From NCBI RefSeq assembly GCF_011045215.1, contig NZ_CP049201.1: a DNA stretch of 64,000 nt, one strand, 5' to 3'. A model generated the notes under the pieces. That model made no database searches, was not told the origin of the DNA, and saw only the letters and a program-made list of their open reading frames with translations. Numbering within the stretch: the stretch's first letter is position 1; every line of letters begins with the position of its first letter. This DNA is from Escherichia coli. GTDB taxonomy: Bacteria > Pseudomonadota > Gammaproteobacteria > Enterobacterales > Enterobacteriaceae. The position numbers and the translations under genes are program-made. This document shows positions 10,676-56,758 of this stretch, in pieces.

Positions 10676-10689
10676 TGCATTGAATGATA

Positions 10690-10718
10690 AAAATGGCGCA
10701 AATACAGCGCCATTTTTA
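10690..10718 (+). terminator. intrinsic terminator after yagU
   Basis: Stem AAAATGGCGC / GCGCCATTTT with loop AAATACA, followed by a T-run, 15 nt after the yagU stop. Confidence 0.55.
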
Positions 10719-10865
10719 TAGGTTAAAAACATTGCTTTTTATATTCTGATGCAGATAGCCAGTGAGTATATCGTGCCACTTCAGGATGATGTAGATCCGA
10801 AGAACGCTACAGAAGAGAGGCATTGTTGCTGGCAAATACAAGAAGTATCGGGTTTTGTTGCCCCT

Positions 10866-10899
10866 AAAAACGAAGCCCCGCTATTACAGTAGGCGGGGC
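10866..10899 (-). terminator. intrinsic terminator after ykgJ
   Basis: Hairpin GCCCCGC(11-nt loop)GCGGGGC at 10875-10899, followed on the minus strand by UUCGUUUUU; about 19 nt downstream of the ykgJ stop. Confidence 0.5.
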
Positions 10900-19871: not shown

Positions 19872-20204
19872 CGTAAAGATACATGCTCATCCGGATCATT
19901 TCAACACCCAATCCCTGTGACCCTTTGTGGATGTGGAATTTCCGCAACGGGGAACTCTGGCATTGTTAGCAGCCGTTGGCGACGCTCCCATAAACGCCTG
20001 GATGAGTGATTGATGATGGTTTTGCTGAGAGTATGGATTTTTCGAGAATGGAGGTTATCTCCACTTTACTGGCCGATGATTTATCGCAGTATGATTGATT
20101 ACCTGACAGCGTGTATTCCTCTCCCACGGATATAATAATTACTTACAAAAAGGGAGAGGATGCATATTTTAAATATCACTGAAGTGAACAGTTTATTGCC
20201 GTTA

Positions 20205-20306
20205 TTAATAGAAATGGAGAAATAAATAGGCGTATTCTACAATTGCGACAAAAACAACGATATTAATCAGTTTATGACTGATTTGTTGTACTTTATTCTC
20301 TTTCAT
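20205..20306 (-). CDS. ykgR: small hydrophobic protein YkgR
   Basis: Minus-strand ORF translates exactly to MKENKVQQISHKLINIVVFVAIVEYAYLFLHFY (33 aa), which I recognise as YkgR. Confidence 0.7.
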   Translation of the reverse strand: MKENKVQQISHKLINIVVFVAIVEYAYLFLHFY

Positions 20307-20779: not shown

Positions 20780-21922
20780 TTAATCCATTAACGGAAACCA
20801 GCCAGTTCCTTTCGATGCCTGAATTTGATCCCATAGTTTATCCGGAATGGTTAATTCAGGAACAAGTTGTGGATTAAGGGTTGTTTGAATTTCATGGCCT
20901 CTACCTGATTCAGCTAAAGTCACCCATTCTGGATTTATCACCAGCCCTTTACCGATCGCAACAAGTGGCAGGCCAGTGGAAATTGCTTCTTGAGCCTGAG
21001 ACGGTGTGCGTATTTTACCTGCAGCGATTACCGGCACTCTGCCTGCAATATGATTTAAAATCAATTCAATAGTTCGGGGGCCATTTGGCGACTCAACAGG
21101 GTAGCTATCGTTAATACTGACCAGCGAGGTATGTATATACGAAATACCGGATGAAATGAGCCGATCAAGGAGTTTATAAGTATCCTCTATCCGCAGCCCC
21201 CCTGTTGCAGATTCTTCAGGAGATATTCTGTAACCGATGGCAAAGGGCTTTGTCGCATATTCATAGACTACATTTTTTACTTCCTGTAATACGGCCAGCG
21301 GGAAGCGCATACGTCCTTCGAGATCTCCTCCCCATCGGTCATTACGCTGGTTAAATAGAGGGGAGAAGAAATTCTGTAGAAGGAATCCGTGCGCACCATG
21401 AAGTTCAATGCCATCAAAACCTGCTTTAATCGCCCTTTTTGTGACATCTCCGAATGCTCTAATGGTTTCCTGAATTTCGTTTTCAGTCATTTCCCTGCTT
21501 TGTACCACTCTCTTCATAAAGTCACCAGATTTTACGCTTGATGCGCTGGCACTAATAACATCGTTATTTGGTACAAGCTCCGGGATGGCTTTATTACCGG
21601 CGTGGAAAATCTGCAAAATAGCCGGAGCACCCCCACTTTTGGCTGCCGCTGCTAACTTTTCAAGGCTGTTAATGAAACGGTCGTCATACGCGGCAAATTC
21701 ATGAGTAAACCCAATGCCGCTTGGCGTGACATAGGTACATCCTGTTATTACTAAACCAACATTTTGTGAGCGGCGTTTATAAAATTCGAGTTCTTGCTCA
21801 GAGATGGTTCCATCAGGATTCGCTGACCAGGTCGTCATAGGAGCCATAACGATACGATTACGTAGCTTTATTTTTTCTGTCAGCATAAAAGGAGAAAACA
21901 ATGATGGGTGTTTATTTGTCAT
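20780..21922 (-). CDS. Old Yellow Enzyme family NADH:flavin oxidoreductase
   Basis: 380 aa with OYE hallmarks (…MAPMTT…, GFDGIELHGAHGFLL, …HAGN…). Confidence 0.8.
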   Translation of the reverse strand: MTNKHPSLFSPFMLTEKIKLRNRIVMAPMTTWSANPDGTISEQELEFYKRRSQNVGLVITGCTYVTPSGIGFTHEFAAYDDRFINSLEKLAAAAKSGGAPAILQIFHAGNKAIPELVPNNDVISASASSVKSGDFMKRVVQSREMTENEIQETIRAFGDVTKRAIKAGFDGIELHGAHGFLLQNFFSPLFNQRNDRWGGDLEGRMRFPLAVLQEVKNVVYEYATKPFAIGYRISPEESATGGLRIEDTYKLLDRLISSGISYIHTSLVSINDSYPVESPNGPRTIELILNHIAGRVPVIAAGKIRTPSQAQEAISTGLPLVAIGKGLVINPEWVTLAESGRGHEIQTTLNPQLVPELTIPDKLWDQIQASKGTGWFPLMD

Positions 21923-22156
21923 AACAATACCTCAAATGTTTATCTGATTTTGATGCGTATGTTTTAACTGGTTAGTTGTTGCCAGCTTTGGAACCAAGAG
22001 TTCTGGCTTTATTTATAATCCCTTTAAAGGGTTTCTAATAATTGAGTTGCTGCTTTTTTGTTTTTTAATGAAATTTCTTTTTGAGTAATTTTATTATTGT
22101 TGTGTAGTCAATAAAGGATAAATGTCAGGGAGATAAGGAATCTCCCTGTAAAATTA

Positions 22157-23077
22157 TTACAAATGTGTTTTATAAAAAGGAATTAATTTATCGAGTGCCT
22201 GTTTTACAGGTTCTGGCTTATCATACAGGTCGTAATGTGAATAACCTTCAACCACGACCAGCTCTTTATGTTTTGAAGCAGCGCGGCCAATAATTTCGCA
22301 GCCGTCACGGTAGGCACCAAATGCGCCCACTCTATCGCCCACCACAACCATTATTGGTTGAGTTAACAGGACTTCTGCAAGATGAAATGCATCCCAACCC
22401 ACGGCAACAGTCTGATGTGAGAATAGCGAACGATTTACCCCATTAGGTGCATAGCCTCGTGGCGAACGATAATATTCTGTGGCTTCAAAAAGGTCTATTT
22501 CTGTTAATCCCGCTTCAAGAGCTGCATCCGGAGAAGAGGGGAGTAAATCATCTACGCGAAGTTTTGCGCCGTTAGCTTCGTCTGTTCTTTGTTGCGCCAT
22601 TGCTTCGAGTGCTCCGATAGGATTAAACGCTGTAAATCCCTCACGCATAAGACGCCCGTAGTTTGCACCCGTGACAGTACCAATAGCTTTAATTCGACGT
22701 TCTGTCATTGCGGCATTAATGGCATATCCACCTCCACCACAAATACCCAGTACACCAATACGCCCGGCATCAACGTAAGGTAAGCTGGTAAGGTAATCAA
22801 CGACAATGCTGAAGTCTTTTACTCGCATTGTTGGATCTTCCAGATAACGCGGTTCCCCACCGCTGCTTCCCTGAAAACTGGCATCAAAAGCAATGACGAT
22901 AAAGCCAGCTTTTGCCAGGGCGGCACCATACACACTACCCGATGTCTGTTCTTTGCAGCTTCCAATTGGATGGGCGCTGATAATGGCAGGATACTTTTTT
23001 TCACTATTAAAATCGTCAGGGAAATAGATATCAGCAGCTATATCCCAGTAAGTGTGTTTTATCGAAACAGTTTTCAT
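22157..23077 (-). CDS. alpha/beta hydrolase, dienelactone-hydrolase-like with Cys at the nucleophile elbow (cytoplasmic paralog)
   Basis: 306 aa; motifs FDASFQGSSGGEPR, GRIGVLGICGGGG and KELVVVEGYSHYDLYD are collinear with the 2236-3393 hydrolase; no signal peptide. Confidence 0.75.
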   Translation of the reverse strand: MKTVSIKHTYWDIAADIYFPDDFNSEKKYPAIISAHPIGSCKEQTSGSVYGAALAKAGFIVIAFDASFQGSSGGEPRYLEDPTMRVKDFSIVVDYLTSLPYVDAGRIGVLGICGGGGYAINAAMTERRIKAIGTVTGANYGRLMREGFTAFNPIGALEAMAQQRTDEANGAKLRVDDLLPSSPDAALEAGLTEIDLFEATEYYRSPRGYAPNGVNRSLFSHQTVAVGWDAFHLAEVLLTQPIMVVVGDRVGAFGAYRDGCEIIGRAASKHKELVVVEGYSHYDLYDKPEPVKQALDKLIPFYKTHL

Positions 23078-23233
23078 TTCAAGCTCCGGGGATTTGCCTA
23101 AACAGATTTAAATATCATTTCTATTATCCGCAACTGGCATTTGTGTTCATATCGAGAACGGCGTAATAGTATGACTTGTATTGGTTATCATCAATGGTCT
23201 AATATCTATCACAGTGTTAAGTTAAGGTTTACA

Positions 23234-24160
23234 ATGATGAAAATAGAGCCTTCAATTTTGCCTTCTCTTGCCTGGTTTGCGCTTATTGTTCGTGCCGGCA
23301 GTTTTTCCAGAGCCGCTTCTGAAATGGGTATTACGCGGGCCGCATTGTCCCAGAATTTAAAATCTCTTGAGGAACGTCTTAACACCAAGCTGATATACCG
23401 TACGACCCGCAATATGTCGCTTACTGAGGAAGGACAGCGTCTGTATGAAGTGCTGGTGTCGGCTTTGGGGCAAATTGATGATGCTTTGAAAGATGTTGGT
23501 GATACCCAACTTGAACCTACAGGCCTGTTGAGAATAAATTCCTCCCGTGTTGCAGCACGGATGCTTGTTGAGCCTCATATTGGCGAGTTTCTTACTCGTT
23601 ACCCCAAAACAAAGATAGAACTCATTATGGATGACGGTTTATCTAACATTATTGCGGACGGCTGTGATGTGGGCATACGTCTTGAGCAAGGACTGGATGA
23701 GCATATGACTGCCGTTCCTGTTGCTCCGCTTATTAAACTGGTTACTGTGGCATCGCCAGATTATTTAAAAGAACACGGTATTCCTGAAACGCCTCAGGAA
23801 CTGAGTAACCATAATTGCCTTCGGTTGCGGCATAAAAGTAGCGGTGCACTCTCTGCATGGGAGTTTTCTAATGTTGCGGGCGGGAATGAAGAGTTCGAAA
23901 TAGAGGTTTCAGGTAAGTATATTTCTAATGATGACGAAAGCATGATACGAATGGCGCTGAATGGAACGGGTATCATTCAACATCTGGATTTTGCAATCGC
24001 TGAACATATCAATGCGGGCAAGTTACAGCCGATTCTTGAGGATTGGGCTGTTTCATTTCCTGGATTTTATATTTATGTTTCATCACGGGTGAGAATGCCC
24101 TCTAAAGTTCGTGCTTTTATTGATTTTATGGTGGAGAAAAGAGTAAAACTCGAAAATTGA
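23234..24160 (+). CDS. LysR-family transcriptional regulator
   Basis: Start set at ATGATG (MMKIEPS…) with AAGG upstream; HTH …AGSFSRAASEMGITRAALSQNLKSLEERL…; divergent from the hydrolase at 22157-23077. Confidence 0.8.
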   Translation: MMKIEPSILPSLAWFALIVRAGSFSRAASEMGITRAALSQNLKSLEERLNTKLIYRTTRNMSLTEEGQRLYEVLVSALGQIDDALKDVGDTQLEPTGLLRINSSRVAARMLVEPHIGEFLTRYPKTKIELIMDDGLSNIIADGCDVGIRLEQGLDEHMTAVPVAPLIKLVTVASPDYLKEHGIPETPQELSNHNCLRLRHKSSGALSAWEFSNVAGGNEEFEIEVSGKYISNDDESMIRMALNGTGIIQHLDFAIAEHINAGKLQPILEDWAVSFPGFYIYVSSRVRMPSKVRAFIDFMVEKRVKLEN

Positions 24161-24300
24161 TGATATGTGTCAGAATATCGGTAAGAAGAATGGCGCAATC
24201 GTGAGGATACGTTTATTCATAATAAATCTCCTGAAAGTTTAGAATTATTTTCGATACAGCCAGATTATCATTGTTACTAATAATGTGGCTAAAATAATAG

Positions 24301-27167
<2,867 letters not shown>

Positions 27168-27605
27168 TTATCGTTCATGAGAAGCATAACGTAAAGAGAA
27201 GAGCTCGATTAGACGGCAGGATTTGTCAGGGGTTATGAACGAAATTCATAAATCTGTTTGAGTGTTGCGATGGGTAGTGCAAGTTCGATATCTCCGCAAT
27301 TTACAGTCCGATAAAGGAAAATTAATATCCATAAAAAATATATCGGTTTATCCTGGCGTATATACCTACTTCGACGTATTTCTAATAGTTGCTAATTAAA
27401 GGCAGGTCATTATTATTCACTCTGAATAATGAATTATTCACTGTCCGCAGAGTAAGAAATATAACTTAAGTATCTATTTAATGACTTGCACAAAAAGCTA
27501 AATTTTCACCCATAAATAAAAATATAATCCCGCGCCCAACCACCTGATGAGTGGCTACAGGCACTGGATATATTAGGTGGCGGTGTACTTTCTTACATAA
27601 AGGTA

Positions 27606-27650
27606 TTTCCTTTTCTGCGGAAAAGGAAACCGGGAAATCCCCGGTTTTTC
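27606..27650 (+). promoter_or_regulatory. leader stem-loops upstream of eaeH (terminator-like hairpin plus overlapping alternative hairpin)
   Basis: Hairpin TTTCCTTTT/AAAAGGAAA (27606-27629) overlaps by 3 nt with hairpin AAACCGGG/CCCGGTTT (27627-27647), which is followed by a T-run; 68 nt upstream of the eaeH ATG. Confidence 0.35.
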
Positions 27651-27717
27651 TGACAAGCAGACGCCATTATTTGTGTCTGCCTATGTTCGTTAATTCGTTC
27701 ATCAGGAAATTATCTCA

Positions 27718-30700
27718 ATGTCACGTTATAAAACAGGTCATAAACAACCACGATTTCGTTATTCAGTTCTGGCCCGCTGCGTGGCGTGGGCAAATATCTC
27801 TGTTCAGGTTCTTTTTCCACTCGCTGTCACCTTTACCCCAGTAATGGCGGCACGTGCGCAGCATGCGGTTCAGCCACGGTTGAGCATGGGAAATACTACG
27901 GTAACTGCTGATAATAATGTGGAGAAAAATGTCGCGTCGTTTGCCGCAAATGCCGGGACATTTTTAAGCAGTCAGCCAGATAGCGATGCGACACGTAACT
28001 TTATTACCGGAATGGCCACAGCTAAAGCTAACCAGGAAATACAGGAGTGGCTCGGGAAATACGGTACTGCGCGCGTCAAACTGAATGTCGATAAAGATTT
28101 CTCGCTGAAGGATTCTTCGCTGGAAATGCTTTATCCGATTTATGATACGCCGACAAATATGTTGTTCACTCAGGGGGCAATACATCGTACAGACGATCGT
28201 ACTCAGTCAAATATTGGTTTTGGCTGGCGTCATTTTTCAGGAAATGACTGGATGGCGGGGGTGAACACCTTTATCGACCATGATTTATCCCGTAGTCATA
28301 CCCGCATTGGTGTTGGTGCGGAATACTGGCGCGATTATCTGAAACTGAGCGCCAATGGTTATATTCGGGCTTCTGGCTGGAAAAAATCGCCGGATATTGA
28401 GGATTATCAGGAACGCCCGGCGAATGGTTGGGATATCCGCGCAGAGGGCTATTTACCTGCCTGGCCGCAGCTTGGCGCAAGCCTGATGTATGAACAGTAT
28501 TATGGCGATGAAGTCGGGCTGTTTGGTAAAGATAAGCGCCAGAAAGACCCGCATGCTATTTCTGCCGAGGTGACCTATACGCCAGTGCCTCTTCTGACAC
28601 TGAGCGCCGGGCATAAGCAGGGCAAGAGCGGTGAGAATGACACTCGCTTTGGCCTGGAAGTTAACTACCGAATTGGCGAACCTTTGGCGAAACAACTCGA
28701 TACGGATAGCATTCGCGAGCGTCGGGTACTGGCAGGCAGCCGCTATGACCTGGTTGAGCGTAATAACAACATCGTTCTTGAGTACCGCAAATCTGAAGTG
28801 ATCCGTATTGCTCTGCCTGAGCGTATTGAAGGTAAGGGCGGTCAGACACTTTCCCTGAGGCTTGTGGTCAGCAAAGCAACTCACGGACTGAAAAATGTGC
28901 AGTGGGAAGCGCCGTCATTACTGGCTGAAGGTGGCAAAATTACCGGTCAGGGTAGTCAGTGGCAAGTAACGCTCCCTGCTTATCGTCCAGGCAAAGACAA
29001 TTATTATGCGATTTCTGCGGTTGCCTACGATAACAAAGGCAATGCCTCAAAACGCGTGCAGACAGAGGTGGTCATTACCGGAGCAGGTATGAGCGCCGAT
29101 CGCACGGCGTTAACGCTTGACGGTCAGAGCCGTATTCAAATGCTTGCTAACGGTAATGAGCAAAAACCGCTGGTGCTGTCTCTGCGCGACGCCGAGGGCC
29201 AGCCAGTCACGGGCATGAAAGATCAGATCAAGACTGAACTAGCCTTCAAACCGGCTGGAAATATTGTGACTCGTTCCCTGAAGGCCGCTAAATCACAGGC
29301 AAAGCCAACACTGGGTGAGTTCACCGAAACTGAAGCAGGGGTGTATCAGTCTGTCTTTACTACCGGAACGCAGTCAGGTGAGGCAACGATTACTGTTAGC
29401 GTTGATGGCATGAGCAAAACCGTCACTGCAGAACTGCGGGCCACGATGATGGATGTGGCAAACTCCACCCTGAGCGCTAACGAGCCGTCAGGTGACGTGG
29501 TTGCTGATGGTCAGCAAGCCTATACGTTGACGTTGACTGCGGTGGACTCCGAGGGTAATCCGGTGACGGGAGAAGCCAGCCGCTTGCGATTTGTTCCGCA
29601 AGACACTAATGGTGTAACCGTTGGTGCCATTTCGGAAATAAAACCAGGCGTTTACAGCGCCACGGTTTCTTCGACCCGTGCCGGAAACGTTGTTGTGCGT
29701 GCTTTCAGCGAGCAGTATCAGCTGGGCACATTACAACAAACGCTGAAGTTTGTTGCCGGGCCGCTTGATGCAGCACATTCGTCCATCACCCTGAATCCTG
29801 ATAAACCGGTGGTTGGGGGGACAGTTACGGCAATCTGGACGGTAAAAGATGCCTATGACAACCCTGTGACCAGCCTCACGCCGGAAGCGCCGTCATTAGC
29901 GGGTGCCGCTGCTGTAGGTTCTACGGCATCGGGCTGGACAAATAATGGTGATGGGACGTGGACTGCGCAGATTACTCTCGGCTCTACGGCGGGTGAATTA
30001 GAAGTTATGCCGAAGCTAAATGGACAGGATGCGGCAGCAAATGCGGCAAAAGTAACCGTGGTGGCTGATGCGTTATCTTCAAACCAGTCGAAAGTCTCTG
30101 TCGCAGAAGATCACGTAAAAGCCGGCGAAAGCACAACCGTGACGCTTATTGCAAAAGATGCACATGGCAACGCTATCAGTGGTCTTTCGTTGTCGGCAAG
30201 TTTGACGGGGACCGCCTCTGAAGGGGCGACCGTTTCCAGTTGGACCGAAAAAGGTGACGGTTCCTATGTTGCTACGTTGACTACAGGCGGAAAGACGGGC
30301 GAGCTTCGTGTCATGCCGCTCTTCAACGGCCAGCCAGCCGCCACCGAAGCCGCGCAGTTGACGGTCATCGCCGGAGAGATGTCATCAGCGAACTCTACGC
30401 TTGTTGCGGACAATAAGGCTCCGACCGTCAAAACGACGACGGAACTCACCTTCACCGTGAAGGATGCGTACGGGAACCCGGTCACCGGGCTGAAGCCAGA
30501 TGCACCAGTGTTTAGCGGTGCCGCCAGCACGGGGAGTGAGCGTCCTTCAGCAGGAAACTGGACAGAGAAAGGTAATGGGGTCTACGTGGCGACCTTAACG
30601 CTGGGATCTGCCGCGGGTCAGTTGTCTGTGATGCCGCGAGTGAACGGCCAAAATGCCGTTGCTCAGCCACTGGTGCTGAACGTTGCAGGTGACGCATCTA

Positions 30701-31971
30701 AGGCTGAGATTCGTGATATGACAGTGAAGGTTAATAACCAACTGGCTAATGGACAGTCTGCTAACCAGATAACCCTGACCGTTGTGGACAGCTATGGTAA
30801 CCCGTTGCAGGGGCAAGAAGTTACGCTGACTTTACCGCAGGGTGTGACCAGCAAGACGGGGAATACAGTAACAACCAATGCGGCAGGGAAAGTGGACATT
30901 GAGCTTATGTCAACGGTTGCGGGAGAACACAATATTTCCGCTTCGGTGAATGGTGCTCAGAAGACGGTCACGGTGAAATTCAACGCGGATGCCAGCACCG
31001 GTCAGGCAAACCTGCAGGTAGACACCGCCGTTCAAAAAGTGGCAAACGGCAAAGATGCCTTTACGCTGACGGCGACCGTTGAGGATAAAAATGGTAACCC
31101 TGTTCCAGGGAGCCTGGTGACCTTTAATCTGCCCCGGGGTGTCAAGCCGCTTATAGGCGATAATGTCTGGGTGAAAGCCAACGATGAGGGGAAAGCCGAG
31201 TTGCAGGTGGTTTCAGTGACTGCCGGAACGTATGAGATCACGGCATCGGCAGGGAATAGCCAGCCTTCGGATACGCAGACTATAACGTTTGTAGCCGATA
31301 AGGCTACCGCAACCGTCTCCGGTATTGAGGTGATGGGCAACTATGCGCTGGCGGACGGCAAAGCCAAACAAACGTATAAAGTTACGGTGACTGATGCCAA
31401 TAACAATTTGGTGAAAGATAGCGACGTGACGCTAACTGCCAGCCCGGCTTCGTTAAACCTGGAACCGAATGGCACTGCGACAACGAATGAGCAAGGGCAG
31501 GCTATTTTCACCGCCACCACTACTGTTGCGGCGACATATAAACTCACGGCGCAAGTGAGTCAGACCAACGGTCAGGTATCAACGAAAACTGCCGAATCTA
31601 AATTCGTCGCGGATGATAAAAACGCGGTGCTCACCGCATCATCTGATATGCAATCTCTGGTGGCGGATGGGAAATCGACTGCGAAGCTGGAGGTGACCCT
31701 GATGTCGGCAAATAACCCCGTTGGCGGGAATATGTGGGTCGACATTCAGACGCCGGAAGGGGTGACGGAGGAGGATTATCAGTTCCTGCCGTCGAAAAAT
31801 GACCATTTCGTGAGCGGAAAAATCACGCGTACATTTAGTACCAGCAAGCCTGGTGTCTATACATTCACATTTAACGCCCTGACCTATGGCGGGTACGAAA
31901 TGAAGCCAGTGACGGTGACCATTACCGCGGTGGATGCCAATACGGCAACGGGCGAGGAGGCGATGAAATAA
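27718..31971 (+). CDS. eaeH: intimin/invasin-like inverse-autotransporter adhesin with tandem bacterial Ig-like domains (intact)
   Basis: 1417 aa; N-terminus MSRYKTGHKQPRFRYSVLARCVAW… and more than eight internal repeats of the pattern T[LV]T[AV].D..GNPV.G (Big-type domains). Also known as fdeC. Confidence 0.85.
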   Translation: MSRYKTGHKQPRFRYSVLARCVAWANISVQVLFPLAVTFTPVMAARAQHAVQPRLSMGNTTVTADNNVEKNVASFAANAGTFLSSQPDSDATRNFITGMATAKANQEIQEWLGKYGTARVKLNVDKDFSLKDSSLEMLYPIYDTPTNMLFTQGAIHRTDDRTQSNIGFGWRHFSGNDWMAGVNTFIDHDLSRSHTRIGVGAEYWRDYLKLSANGYIRASGWKKSPDIEDYQERPANGWDIRAEGYLPAWPQLGASLMYEQYYGDEVGLFGKDKRQKDPHAISAEVTYTPVPLLTLSAGHKQGKSGENDTRFGLEVNYRIGEPLAKQLDTDSIRERRVLAGSRYDLVERNNNIVLEYRKSEVIRIALPERIEGKGGQTLSLRLVVSKATHGLKNVQWEAPSLLAEGGKITGQGSQWQVTLPAYRPGKDNYYAISAVAYDNKGNASKRVQTEVVITGAGMSADRTALTLDGQSRIQMLANGNEQKPLVLSLRDAEGQPVTGMKDQIKTELAFKPAGNIVTRSLKAAKSQAKPTLGEFTETEAGVYQSVFTTGTQSGEATITVSVDGMSKTVTAELRATMMDVANSTLSANEPSGDVVADGQQAYTLTLTAVDSEGNPVTGEASRLRFVPQDTNGVTVGAISEIKPGVYSATVSSTRAGNVVVRAFSEQYQLGTLQQTLKFVAGPLDAAHSSITLNPDKPVVGGTVTAIWTVKDAYDNPVTSLTPEAPSLAGAAAVGSTASGWTNNGDGTWTAQITLGSTAGELEVMPKLNGQDAAANAAKVTVVADALSSNQSKVSVAEDHVKAGESTTVTLIAKDAHGNAISGLSLSASLTGTASEGATVSSWTEKGDGSYVATLTTGGKTGELRVMPLFNGQPAATEAAQLTVIAGEMSSANSTLVADNKAPTVKTTTELTFTVKDAYGNPVTGLKPDAPVFSGAASTGSERPSAGNWTEKGNGVYVATLTLGSAAGQLSVMPRVNGQNAVAQPLVLNVAGDASKAEIRDMTVKVNNQLANGQSANQITLTVVDSYGNPLQGQEVTLTLPQGVTSKTGNTVTTNAAGKVDIELMSTVAGEHNISASVNGAQKTVTVKFNADASTGQANLQVDTAVQKVANGKDAFTLTATVEDKNGNPVPGSLVTFNLPRGVKPLIGDNVWVKANDEGKAELQVVSVTAGTYEITASAGNSQPSDTQTITFVADKATATVSGIEVMGNYALADGKAKQTYKVTVTDANNNLVKDSDVTLTASPASLNLEPNGTATTNEQGQAIFTATTTVAATYKLTAQVSQTNGQVSTKTAESKFVADDKNAVLTASSDMQSLVADGKSTAKLEVTLMSANNPVGGNMWVDIQTPEGVTEEDYQFLPSKNDHFVSGKITRTFSTSKPGVYTFTFNALTYGGYEMKPVTVTITAVDANTATGEEAMK

Positions 31972-32091
31972 TATTAAGAGTATGAAAGTAACATTCTAAT
32001 AAACAATAATGGCGTTGACATCTTCAACGCCATTATTTATTGAATTTCCTGACAGTAGTCTCGTTATAAATTCATTTAGACATAGCGACAG

Positions 32092-32982
32092 CTAAACCGG
32101 ACGAACGGGGATAAAAATTTCGCAAACAATGTTATTGCTATCAATTTCGACGAAATTTTCATTGTAATAAAACCGCTCAATATCACTGCCGTTGACTCTG
32201 GCTAACCCCCTGGCGGGTAATTCCATCAGATAGAGGTTTCGCGCCCATTCAGGGTAGTGCTCCCACTCACCTTCATAGCGGAAAGAGGCATACAGTCCTC
32301 GGTTAATTGTCCACTCTTTCGGCATCTCTGAATCGGTTTGTTTGCATACCGTACCGGCAAAAGTTTCAACCGTGAGCAAATCGACCGATTTTGTTGACGG
32401 TTCAAACGTGGAGACGAAATAGATATCCGTCTTAAAATTATTCATACATCTGGCTAAATGATGACGTCGCAGTTTGACTTCTTCATCCGGTGATTTATTC
32501 GACACTTCAATATCATATTTAAATGAATTGCCAAAAATAGGTGTCTCAGGAAAGTTGACTAATCTACACTCCGTCTTTTGCTGTTGACGTATTAAAAAAG
32601 AAGGGAAGATATTTGCGAGATCCCAATAATCACGGTGGCGGTATACACGGGGAGAGCAGCCGAATAACTTTTTAAATTCGCGGCTGAATGACTGCTGTGA
32701 ATCAAAATGCAAAGAGAGTGCAATATCAAGCATAGATTTCGCGGTGAGCCGGACAAGAATGGCGGCACGACAAAGCCTTCGTTTGCGAATGTATTCTCCC
32801 AAAGGCACATGCATGAAATTTCGGAACAGAAGCTGGATGTTGCGTCTGCTGTAGCCAGATTTCTGTGCGATATCTTCGATTGAAATAGGGTGCTCAAGAT
32901 TGCACTCAATCCACTCCAGGAGCTGCTGTAGAATCTTCTGCCTGATCATCACATTCTCCATTAATTCTTCGTCATATCGCAC
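32092..32982 (-). CDS. ykgA: AraC-family regulator with C-terminal GyrI-like effector domain (ykgA-like)
   Basis: AraC HTH at the N-terminus (…IEDIAQKSGYSRRNIQLLFRNF…FGCSPRVYR) followed by about 150 aa of GyrI-like domain; start codon uncertain. Confidence 0.7.
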   Translation of the reverse strand: MRYDEELMENVMIRQKILQQLLEWIECNLEHPISIEDIAQKSGYSRRNIQLLFRNFMHVPLGEYIRKRRLCRAAILVRLTAKSMLDIALSLHFDSQQSFSREFKKLFGCSPRVYRHRDYWDLANIFPSFLIRQQQKTECRLVNFPETPIFGNSFKYDIEVSNKSPDEEVKLRRHHLARCMNNFKTDIYFVSTFEPSTKSVDLLTVETFAGTVCKQTDSEMPKEWTINRGLYASFRYEGEWEHYPEWARNLYLMELPARGLARVNGSDIERFYYNENFVEIDSNNIVCEIFIPVRPV

Positions 32983-33196: not shown

Positions 33197-34066
33197 GTGG
33201 AATTTTCCGTATTAAGTAACAATCTGAAAATGCCGATGATGGGATTTGGTGTTTTTCAGGTTACCGATAAAAACGTGTGCAAACAGTCAGTGTTGAACGC
33301 TATCCGCACGGGTTATCGACTCATCGACACTGCAGCGGTATACGGTAATGAAGATGCTGTCGGTGAAGCCGTTCGTGAAGCCATATCCGAAGGTTTATGT
33401 ACCCGAGAAGAGTTATTTATAACGTCTAAATTGTGGGTGCAGGATATGTTGAATCAGGATACGGCAGCAGCAGGTATTGAAGCATCATTAAAAAAATCGG
33501 GACTAGAATACTTCGACCTCTATTTATTGCATCAGGCTATGCGCGATTATTTCAGTGCGTGGCGTGCACTCGAAGATGCCTATGAAGAGGGCAAATTAAA
33601 AGCGATTGGGGTTTCCAATTTCTATCCTCATGTTCTGGCGAACTTTTGTGAAACGGTAAGAGTTAAACCGATGGTCAACCAGGTCGAGTTGCATCCCTAT
33701 TTTGCCCAACCAGAGGCACTGGCAACCATGAAGTATTATAACGTGCAGCCTGAAGCATGGGCTCCGTTAGGTGGTGGACGACATAAACCCTTTGAAAATA
33801 ATCTGCTTCAGAGTATTGCAGATGCCCATCAAAAATCGATTTCTCAAGTCATTCTGCGTTGGAATATTCAACGGGGAGTGGTCGTTATTCCGAAATCGAC
33901 ACATCAACAGCGTATCGAAGAAAATTTTGCTATCTGGGATTTCTCACTGACAGAGAAAGAAATGGCACAAATTAGTTCGCTTGATTTGGGTTATGTTGGA
34001 GAGTCGGTAAAACATTTTAATCCTGAATTTGTTCGTGGTTGTCTTGCTGTAAAAATACATGATTGA
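33197..34066 (+). CDS. aldo-keto reductase (DkgA-like)
   Basis: AKR motifs (MPMMGFGVFQV…IDTAAVYGNE…); GGAGGGA lies 6 nt before the GTG at 33197, so that was preferred over the ORF-track ATG at 33182. Confidence 0.75.
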   Translation: MEFSVLSNNLKMPMMGFGVFQVTDKNVCKQSVLNAIRTGYRLIDTAAVYGNEDAVGEAVREAISEGLCTREELFITSKLWVQDMLNQDTAAAGIEASLKKSGLEYFDLYLLHQAMRDYFSAWRALEDAYEEGKLKAIGVSNFYPHVLANFCETVRVKPMVNQVELHPYFAQPEALATMKYYNVQPEAWAPLGGGRHKPFENNLLQSIADAHQKSISQVILRWNIQRGVVVIPKSTHQQRIEENFAIWDFSLTEKEMAQISSLDLGYVGESVKHFNPEFVRGCLAVKIHD

Positions 34067-41864: not shown

Positions 41865-42057
41865 AATATATCCAGAAAATAAAATCTGCCGCAGATAAAT
41901 GAATTAATAGTCTGTATCAGGAATGTTCGGGTTAAATATCAGCAAAAAGCCAGCATCATGAATACTGGATATGAAGCATGAGAGTTACCTCAGTGTTTAT
42001 ATAAGGATTCGGCCCCCCTCTCTGGAACGGTAACTCTCAATCTGATCGGTTCCTGCG

Positions 42058-48008: not shown

Positions 48009-48046
48009 AAACCGCGCCATGTTTGCATATGGCGCGGTTTCTCTTA
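48009..48046 (+). terminator. intrinsic terminator after betT
   Basis: Stem AAACCGCGCCAT / ATGGCGCGGTTT (12 bp) with an 8-nt loop, followed by TCTCTT; 14 nt after the betT stop. Confidence 0.55.
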
Positions 48047-48870
48047 CCTCTTGATACGTTATATCTGTACGGTTAAGCCCTTAGTATCGATTGATGATTG
48101 CCAGGCAACAGATAATAAAAAAGAAAAGAACTATTGAAGCCCAAAACCTACATTTGGACTGTTGTGAATGTTCAATAAGCTTAGTCTTATTTAATGTAAA
48201 TATTGGTGCTAATTTGAAATGACGCTTTATTCATGGGGAACGCGTAGCGCAAATCAACTAAAATCAATGTAACCGTTTGTTGTTTAAGGTTTAATTGTCT
48301 GTGTCTGATATTTTATTGATTGTTTTAAATATTGTTTTTATTGTCATTGTTATAATGTTGGCTATCTATTGCTGAATGGATTCAGTCTTAAAAGGCAGGT
48401 TGTTAAGGGATAGGCATAGAGTAATGACGTGTATGCATAACCAACATCTTTACTCATTATGTCATTGAATGTTGACGCTATGTGTTTATGAGGTTGAGGT
48501 ATTTTCAGTTGATCTGGATTGTTAAATTCATATAATGCGCCTTTACTCATGAGTGGGCATCAATACGTAGTGGGAAATTATAAATATCGAAATAGTCCAA
48601 CTACTTCTTCATTACCAAAAATGAGTATCTGAATTTTAATATTGCATTCTTGCGTGATTATCTCCTGAGTTTGACTTGTGATTACCTTTTTAAGGTATTT
48701 AGCGTAACTGTTTTTGAGCGAGCATCAGAGGTAAAGATAATCTTCTTGATAGTGATGTGGGATGTTATACGTATGGCATCGCTAATGTTTATGGTTACCC
48801 CTTATGTGTGCTCAGGAATCCACAGGTAATCACTCATACTGAACAGCGATAAAAGATAAAAGGTGTGTTC

Positions 48871-56255: not shown

Positions 56256-56709
56256 TGCCGGATGCGGCGTGAACGCCTTATCCGGCCTACAAGTGGCGCA
56301 AGAATTTGTAGGCCTGATAAGCGTAGCGCATCAGGCATTTGTCACCATTGCCTGATGCGGCGTGAACGCCTTATCCGGCCTACGAGTGGCGCGAGAATTT
56401 GTAGGCCTGATAAGCGTAGCGCATCAGGCATTTGTCACCATTGCCGGATGCGGCGTGAACGCCTTATCCGGCCTACGAGTGGCACGAGAATTTGTAGGCC
56501 TGATAAGCGTAGCGCATCAGGCATTTGTCACCATTGCCGGATGCGGCGTGAACGCCTTATCCGGCCTACGAGTGGCACGAGAATTTGTAGGCCTGATAAG
56601 CGTAGCGCATCAGGCATTTGTCACCATTGCCGGATGCGGCGTGAACGCCTTATCCGGCCTACGAGTGGCACGAGAATTTGTAGGCCTGATAAGCGTAGCG
56701 CATCAGGCA
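56256..56709. repeat. tandem REP (BIME-type) array, about 5 units of about 93 bp
   Basis: Repeating unit TGCCGGATGCGGCGTGAACGCCTTATCCGGCCTAC-spacer-TAGGCCTGATAAGCGTAGCGCATCAGGCA-TTTGTCACCAT, with unit starts at about 56256, 56349, 56442, 56536 and 56628; fills the yahG-yahI gap. Confidence 0.85.
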
Positions 56710-56758
56710 ATTTGGCGTTGGTCACAACCCCATCATCCTCTGTAGCGGACATAACAAA

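Follow-up and report, generated by a model that had tools for sequence, protein, structure and literature searches.

FdeC is an E. coli adhesin that has been characterised, is broadly conserved and is a candidate vaccine antigen. According to published work, it adheres to epithelial cells and binds collagens I, III, V and VI; its expression is lacking in standard culture and induced by host-cell contact (PMC3324786). The fdeC cluster comprises three regulators and five reductases or hydrolases, and the K-12 copy has been described as a pseudogene (PMC3324786). In CFT073, FdeC has a surface-exposed passenger and TAM-assisted assembly, yields a 50 kDa barrel fragment and a 100 kDa passenger fragment, and was reported to carry "10 Big domains" (PMC4943183).

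We analysed a 64,000-nucleotide stretch of E. coli DNA (the window) in which a long open reading frame at 27718..31971 on the plus strand had been proposed as a full-length eaeH/fdeC gene free of IS elements. We conclude, with a probability of about 0.97, that this is the intact chromosomal fdeC (eaeH) of E. coli, encoding the prototype "FdeC-type" inverse autotransporter (type Ve secretion) adhesin. The gene is an already known, ordinary one and not a discovery; FdeC has been characterised and intact copies are the norm, so the finding carries little weight as a novelty.

Gene identity and domain architecture

Re-translation of 27718..31971 (+) yielded a single ATG-to-TAA ORF of 1417 codons plus stop, with zero internal stops and no frameshift, the two defects that the first-pass annotation had thought capable of undoing its call. 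At the DNA level the coding sequence reaches 99.4% identity with genes annotated "inverse autotransporter adhesin FdeC", in the closest genome PGAP places fdeC at the same coordinates, and an identical protein sequence is deposited at NCBI as FdeC on 7 contigs. The crystal structure of FdeC region B (PDB 4E9L) aligns to aa 595-1008 with ~96% identity over 414 aa. Against five annotated FdeC alleles the protein is 91.5-99.6% identical, with the TB06052 allele at 99.6%; FdeC/EaeH orthologues are recognised by how closely they match characterised FdeC, for which >91% aa identity has been reported among strains. An NCBIfam scan returned no model at its curated cut-off, the top hit, IatC_Nterm, scoring 643.6 bits where 2400 are required, so the name fdeC rests on orthology and not on a family HMM. 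Together the continuous ORF, the domain hits described below, the match to 4E9L and the exact NCBI entry bear out the proposed full-length, uninterrupted gene, and nothing in the analysis contradicts the identification.

The translation begins with a long signal-peptide-like segment followed by a short periplasmic segment (aa 1-75; 27718..27942, +), in which a basic start, a hydrophobic stretch and an A-x-A-like site (...PVMAARA) can be made out by eye as a putative Sec signal peptide. An inverse-autotransporter beta-barrel and linker follow at aa 76-357 (27943..28788, +). Pfam places IAT_beta (PF11924) at aa 76-350 with E = 6.8e-109, covering profile positions 3-279 of 279, and aa 113-357 aligns with two known barrel structures, 4E1T of invasin (E = 4.5e-82) and 4E1S of intimin (E = 5.6e-71). 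The next segment, D1 (aa 358-470; 28789..29127, +), is a membrane-proximal D00-like Ig domain by virtue of a match of aa 358-479 to the intimin D00-D0 structure 6TQD (E = 5.8e-13); scanned alone against Pfam, it gave no hit.

The remainder, aa 471-1417 (29128..31968, +), consists of nine tandem Ig-like (Big_1/Invasin_D3) domains of ~100 aa each, D2-D10, starting at approximately aa 471, 590, 691, 794, 896, 1004, 1103, 1206 and 1310. A self-built HMM found nine copies with a period of ~100 aa from aa 472 to 1405, Pfam assigned Invasin_D3 to nine stretches and Big_1 to six, 4E9L falls within this part of the protein, and every one of the nine segments matched an Ig-like profile when scanned singly. 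The domain check suggested for the many Ig-like repeats thus returned both the barrel and the repeats. Their proposed motif, T[LV]T[AV].D..GNPV.G, fared less well: a loosened form occurs five times, but the literal form only once (aa 605), and it is a motif flavour and not an exact signature common to the repeats.

The passenger, nine Invasin_D3/Big_1 domains plus the D00-like domain, lies wholly C-terminal to the barrel, which is the inverse topology; an N-terminal IAT barrel followed by an Ig-domain passenger is the hallmark of the inverse autotransporter family. The Pfam scan of the protein found no LysM domain and neither a C-type lectin cap nor an intimin C-terminal domain, and the absence of LysM, ten Big domains and the lack of a lectin cap are the architecture of the FdeC group. 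The ten domains found here agree with the published count.

Locus, secretion and expression

The gene order is ykgR-reductases-fdeC-ykgA-rclCBA, with the cluster of regulators and reductases/hydrolases lying between ykgR and rclCBA as expected for an FdeC-group locus, and positions 19729-39970 of the window are collinear with TB06052 (99.2% identity) and have the same fdeC-cluster gene content. This synteny agrees with the published cluster. Upstream, an AT-rich intergenic region with a GC content of ~34-38% in the composition profile (27153..27717, +), presumed to hold the fdeC promoter, separates fdeC from a divergent aldo/keto reductase gene (26301..27152, -). A promoter scan of this region found sigma-70-like matches no more frequent than in shuffled sequence, including two weak ones at chance level (27300-27328 and 27389-27416), and we claim no promoter. 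Downstream, the terminator scan identified a hairpin with a perfect 14-bp stem and T-runs on both strands (32005..32037), probably a bidirectional intrinsic terminator common to fdeC and the convergent ykgA-like gene (32092..32949, -).

Going by what is known of the family, FdeC would be exported by Sec via its N-terminal signal sequence, and BAM and TAM would assist the insertion of a 12-stranded N-terminal beta-barrel (aa ~76-350) into the outer membrane. Through this barrel the C-terminal passenger would then pass outward, folding extracellularly into a rod of ten Ig-like domains that projects from the surface. By means of the rod the cells would attach to collagens I, III, V and VI and to epithelial cells, and the rod would also promote cell-cell aggregation and biofilm formation. 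Orthology points to surface exposure and BAM/TAM-dependent assembly in the source strain as well, and the secretion route and binding targets suggested for this allele are those of the literature. The first-pass annotation called the adhesin functional, which the integrity of the ORF suggests.

An intact gene could nevertheless be effectively silent or non-functional, a cryptic adhesin that is either silenced by the nucleoid or carries inactivating missense changes. The low GC content upstream and the failure of the promoter scan to find a convincing promoter fit this reading, as do the reported lack of expression in standard culture with induction on host-cell contact (PMC3324786) and the title of Easton et al. 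2014, as cited in PMC6714894, which places fdeC under H-NS control. By analogy, H-NS-type silencing may act on the AT-rich promoter region in the source strain. Conditional expression is however the normal, known behaviour of fdeC and not a defect, and both the near identity to the TB06052 allele with exact copies deposited from other contigs and the conservation of the barrel across alleles (97.5-100%) argue against inactivating changes. We therefore regard a cryptic gene as improbable and retain the intact fdeC adhesin as our reading.

Repeat number and allelic diversity

It had also been suggested that repeat number in such genes varies and is prone to recombination. The tandem architecture with its ~100-aa period invites the view that the region is a hypervariable array, with strain-to-strain differences in copy number or with copies lost to collapse during assembly, and one sampled genome in 60, AST81, does have a ~645-nt deletion across D7-D9, in an allele annotated as a pseudogene. 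The DNA argues strongly the other way. Tandem Repeats Finder (TRF, minimum score 30) detected no array within fdeC, its one hit being an unrelated 11-nt repeat upstream (27156-27176); the longest exact direct repeat in fdeC is 16 nt, and a repeat search gave only chance-sized matches of 14-26 nt. Pairwise comparison of the Ig domains gives identities of 10-45% at the protein level and 29-50% at the DNA level.

Lengths across strains are equally constant. Of 60 rows sampled over the whole match ranking, 53 reach a query coverage of at least 99%. Fifty-one are ungapped-length matches (4211-4257 bp), and the other two are H62, which has an IS421 insertion, and H65, whose 4285-bp allele is frameshifted. 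The strain comparison of repeat counts proposed in the first-pass annotation came out uniform: six intact alleles spanning the identity range (91.5-99.6% aa) are all 1416-1418 aa long and have the same ten domains. With repeats at most 50% identical in DNA, exact repeats of at most 16 nt, no TRF array and constant allele lengths, a variable repeat number is very unlikely. Assignment to the hypervariable tandem-repeat surface proteins was likewise rejected, as the sampled alleles have neither near-identical DNA repeats nor length polymorphism. Since fdeC is not variable in repeat number, short-read assemblies of the gene can be trusted, and long-read confirmation of the count is needless.

What differs between the aligned alleles is instead their sequence, and the divergence is greatest in the distal domains D8-D10. 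In a comparison of the window with AHB29 and Ec-050, alleles of other classes, these domains are 70-83% identical in aa sequence, whereas the barrel is at least 97% and D2, D3, D5 and D6 are 96.6-100% identical. The drop might tentatively be read as discrete FdeC "tip types", swapped by recombination and differing in receptor or antigenic specificity, with the window holding one such type, although we consider this rather doubtful. Variation along the rod between FdeC subtypes was already shown by Heinz et al. 2016, to judge from the legend of their Fig. 5, and tip types, if real, would extend the work that this legend describes. Sequence diversity in the distal Ig domains bears on vaccine coverage.

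Relation to K-12 and to other inverse autotransporters

Matches to fdeC are present in 5078 of 5426 complete E. coli genomes, and at least 80% of the gene is covered in 4585 of the 5426 (~85%). An intact fdeC is the usual state in E. coli and not peculiar to the source strain. The K-12 MG1655 eaeH pseudogene (b0297) occupies the same position after ykgR and its first 876 nt are 98.7% identical to the window, but only 292 codons are left, ending within the barrel, whereas the window has all 1417. The statement that the K-12 allele is interrupted by an IS3-family element was right as far as it went: blastn against NC_000913 (306000-324000) located IS3A at codon 292, but also showed that the adjoining 3695 bp are deleted. 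The stretch replaced by IS3A, 28594..32288 in the window, takes in fdeC codons 293-1417, the intergenic region with the terminator and the 3' end of the ykgA homologue. Because of the deletion beside IS3A, excision of the element could not restore the K-12 allele. K-12 further lacks a 6.3-kb block of reductase, hydrolase and LysR genes upstream (window 20872..27166), as well as window 33213..33937. The source strain has kept the complete fdeC cluster and is not a K-12 derivative, and K-12 is the exception among E. coli, its IS3A-plus-deletion junction occurring in only 297 of the 5426 complete genomes.

That the gene is another inverse autotransporter (intimin, invasin, YeeJ or one of IatA-D) mislabelled as fdeC is refuted: the IatC, Ilp, intimin and SinH models of NCBIfam do hit the protein, but all far under their cut-offs, no LysM, C-type lectin or intimin C-terminal domain is present, the locus is not the LEE, and ~96% identity to the solved FdeC fragment stands against E = 1e-13 for invasin 1CWV. 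Membership in intimin, invasin, SinH and YchO was also considered and rejected on score and architecture; for intimin (Eae) the score was 384 bits against 1400 for intimin_all.

Intimin and Yersinia invasin resemble FdeC in the IAT barrel, the D00-like proximal domain, the Ig rod and type Ve secretion. Unlike them, FdeC lacks both a LysM domain and a C-type lectin receptor-binding domain at the C-terminus, and it has ten Ig domains where they have 4-5; unlike intimin, it is encoded outside the LEE and has no Tir partner. YeeJ, IatB, IatC and IatD belong to the same family and share the principle of a Big_1-repeat passenger (PMC6714894, PMC5595812), but differ in locus, size (725-2934 aa) and prevalence, YeeJ having a LysM domain and IatC and IatD lectin caps (PMC6714894). 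EaeH of ETEC H10407 and FdeC of EHEC O157:H7 are the same gene, EaeH being the older name; the O157:H7 allele, also 1417 aa, is 97.2% identical to the window in protein, with D9 at 86.5%, D10 at 92.6% and all else at or above 95%. B2-type alleles such as AHB29 differ chiefly in D8-D10 (74-83% aa identity). FdeC of ExPEC IHE3034 and CFT073 (Nesta et al. 2012, PMC3324786; 4E9L) is the orthologue, a protein of 1416-1417 aa with a barrel and ten Ig domains encoded in the same cluster, from which the gene in the window differs by allelic substitutions only.

An intact fdeC gene in its usual locus

We find that the ORF at 27718-31971 (+) is fdeC (eaeH), an ordinary, well-characterized and already known gene in its usual intact state. 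The first-pass annotation had described a continuous, full-length eaeH/fdeC adhesin ORF of 1417 codons, and this holds: the ORF listing and direct translation both give a single frame from ATG to TAA with zero internal stops, in-frame stops lie immediately 5' of it, and PGAP places the same start and stop in the closest complete genome, TB06052. GC content is 52.6% in the ORF versus 49.7% in the entire window. By megablast, fdeC was matched in 5078 of 5426 complete E. coli genomes and at least 80% covered in 4585, with TB06052 the best match (99.4% DNA identity); all 30 best rows, and the full-length rows of a spread sample, are annotated "fdeC: inverse autotransporter adhesin FdeC". The identical 1417-aa protein is deposited in NCBI as FdeC on 7 contigs (e.g. 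EEY3527767.1), its 90%-identity cluster holds 3112 members, and crystallized FdeC region B (PDB 4E9L) aligns end to end over residues 595-1008 at ~96% identity. None of the NCBIfam models reached its curated cut-off, intimin_all scoring 384 bits against 1400; intimin was therefore rejected, and orthology is the basis for the name FdeC.

The window is collinear with TB06052 over fdeC and its flanks (98.8-99.2% identity), running from ykgM/ykgO and ykgR through an NADH-flavin oxidoreductase, an alpha/beta hydrolase, two LysR regulators and two aldo/keto reductases to fdeC, followed by a convergent HTH (ykgA-type) regulator, a further aldo/keto reductase, and then rclCBA, rclR and ykgEFG. This is the 'fdeC cluster' of Nesta et al. 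2012, comprising three regulators and five reductases or hydrolases (PMC3324786). A hairpin with a perfect 14-bp stem and T-runs on both strands (32005-32037) separates fdeC from the convergent regulator gene, and the 565-bp intergenic region 5' of fdeC is AT-rich (GC 34-38%). Judging by the title of a 2014 study by Easton et al., fdeC is reportedly controlled by H-NS and temperature.

Several other features were seen in the window. A full-length Rfam IS009 match at 10681-10879 (+; 189 bits, gathering score 117) lies in the ecpE-ykgJ-yagU neighbourhood, judged by TB06052 collinearity, and 840-956 (117 bp, 91% identical to the ykgR region at ~20160-20270) appears to be a second, partial ykgR copy, annotated as a pseudogene in TB06052. 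Near 41970, the window lacks a ~4.1-kb block that TB06052 carries between ykgH and betA, containing ipbA (pseudogene), hyxR, hyxA and an adhesin fragment. TB06052 also has a 4-kb autotransporter adhesin gene, ehaA, between betT and pdeL; the window instead has ~820 bp (48038-48859) with no alignment to that locus and therefore lacks ehaA.

Barrel and ten-domain passenger

Pfam placed an inverse-autotransporter beta-domain over aa 76-350 (E = 6.8e-109, profile covered in full), matching the solved barrels of invasin (4E1T) and intimin (4E1S), along with nine Invasin_D3 stretches and six Big_1; LysM and a C-type lectin or intimin C-terminal domain were absent from the same search. An HMM trained iteratively on the repeats of the protein itself converged on nine ~100-aa copies (aa 472-570, 592-670, 692-774, 795-876, 897-982, 1004-1085, 1104-1186, 1207-1287 and 1311-1405), every one of which, scanned singly, matched Invasin_D3 and/or Big_1. 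The proposed Big_1 and beta-barrel architecture was thus confirmed, although the proposed repeat motif T[LV]T[AV].D..GNPV.G occurs literally only once (aa 605) and five times when loosened. Residues 358-470, between barrel and first repeat, lack a Pfam match and resemble the solved intimin D00-D0 structure 6TQD (E = 5.8e-13); with the nine repeats this makes ten Ig-like domains, D1-D10 from the membrane outward, as many as Heinz et al. 2016 report in FdeC (PMC4943183).

The ORF is intact, has a barrel-then-Ig-rod topology and is orthologous to FdeC. By analogy with its family, the protein would be exported via Sec, its barrel inserted with the assistance of BAM and TAM, and its passenger would exit through that barrel. 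When FdeC is shaved with proteinase K, the barrel appears as a 50-kDa fragment and the passenger as one of 100 kDa (PMC4943183). The window protein would likewise bind epithelial cells and collagens I, III, V and VI and aggregate cells; epithelial adhesion, binding of these collagens, aggregation and induction by host-cell contact are described for FdeC (PMC3324786).

Stable length and distal allelic divergence

The repeat number of fdeC is not unstable, contrary to the initial suggestion that it varies and is prone to recombination. TRF (minimum score 30) found zero arrays within the gene, a repeat search of its DNA returned only chance-sized matches of 14-26 nt, and exact direct repeats reach 16 nt at most; pairwise, the ten domains share 10-45% protein and 29-50% DNA identity. 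Among 60 rows spread over the entire megablast ranking, 53 cover at least 99% of the query and span 4211-4257 bp, except H62, with an IS421 insertion, and H65, frameshifted and 4285 bp long. Six intact alleles (91.5-99.6% protein identity) encode 1416-1418 aa with indels of 1-2 codons, so the strain comparison gives a near-constant length.

At the sequence level, fdeC diversity instead consists of allelic substitutions that cluster at the distal tip. Between alleles, identity is 97.5-100% in the barrel and 96.6-100% in D2, D3, D5 and D6, falling to 70-83% in D8, D9 and D10 of AHB29 and Ec-050, the two alleles that diverge most. Heinz et al. show a subtype conservation gradient that agrees with this distal divergence (PMC4943183).

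Elsewhere in the window, 56256-56714 is a tandem array of a 93-bp unit (4.9 copies, 98% matching) of REP/BIME type, flanked by yahG and yahI homologues; four copies match the Rfam family naRNA4 (CssrE), a nucleoid-associated ncRNA, on the minus strand.

Lesions in K-12 and other strains

The K-12 allele had been described as interrupted by an IS3-family element. IS3A does adjoin MG1655 eaeH (b0297), an 888-bp pseudogene, and on its other side abuts a truncated ykgA pseudogene, but this is not a simple interruption. K-12 aligns to window 27167-28593, diverging directly 3' of ...CGCCAGTGCCTCTT, and again from 32289; it therefore keeps only 876 nt of fdeC (292 codons, ending within the barrel) and has lost 3695 bp. 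The lesion is an IS3-associated deletion. A 200-bp probe spanning the fdeC/IS3 junction, with a match required along 80% or more of the probe, detected this junction in 297 of 5426 genomes.

Other lesions in the spread sample were the IS421 insertion in H62, a frameshifted allele in SL124, a 42% truncation in one O111:H8 strain, and a ~645-nt deletion across D7-D9 in AST81 (NZ_AP043641.1, 3616-3644); the 60 genomes contained no other sizeable internal deletion. The annotation of this rare AST81 allele splits it into a pseudogene and a distinct Ig-like ORF. Published figures, with fdeC in 99% of ExPEC (PMC3324786), agree in kind with our counts.

Unlike the window, K-12 also lacks 20872-27166, with six upstream reductase, hydrolase and LysR genes, and 33213-33937. 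These segments (NADH-flavin oxidoreductase, alpha/beta hydrolase, two LysR, two aldo/keto reductases and part of a third) are present in the window and most E. coli, and in MG1655 their sole traces are the remnant pseudogenes ykgP and ykgQ.
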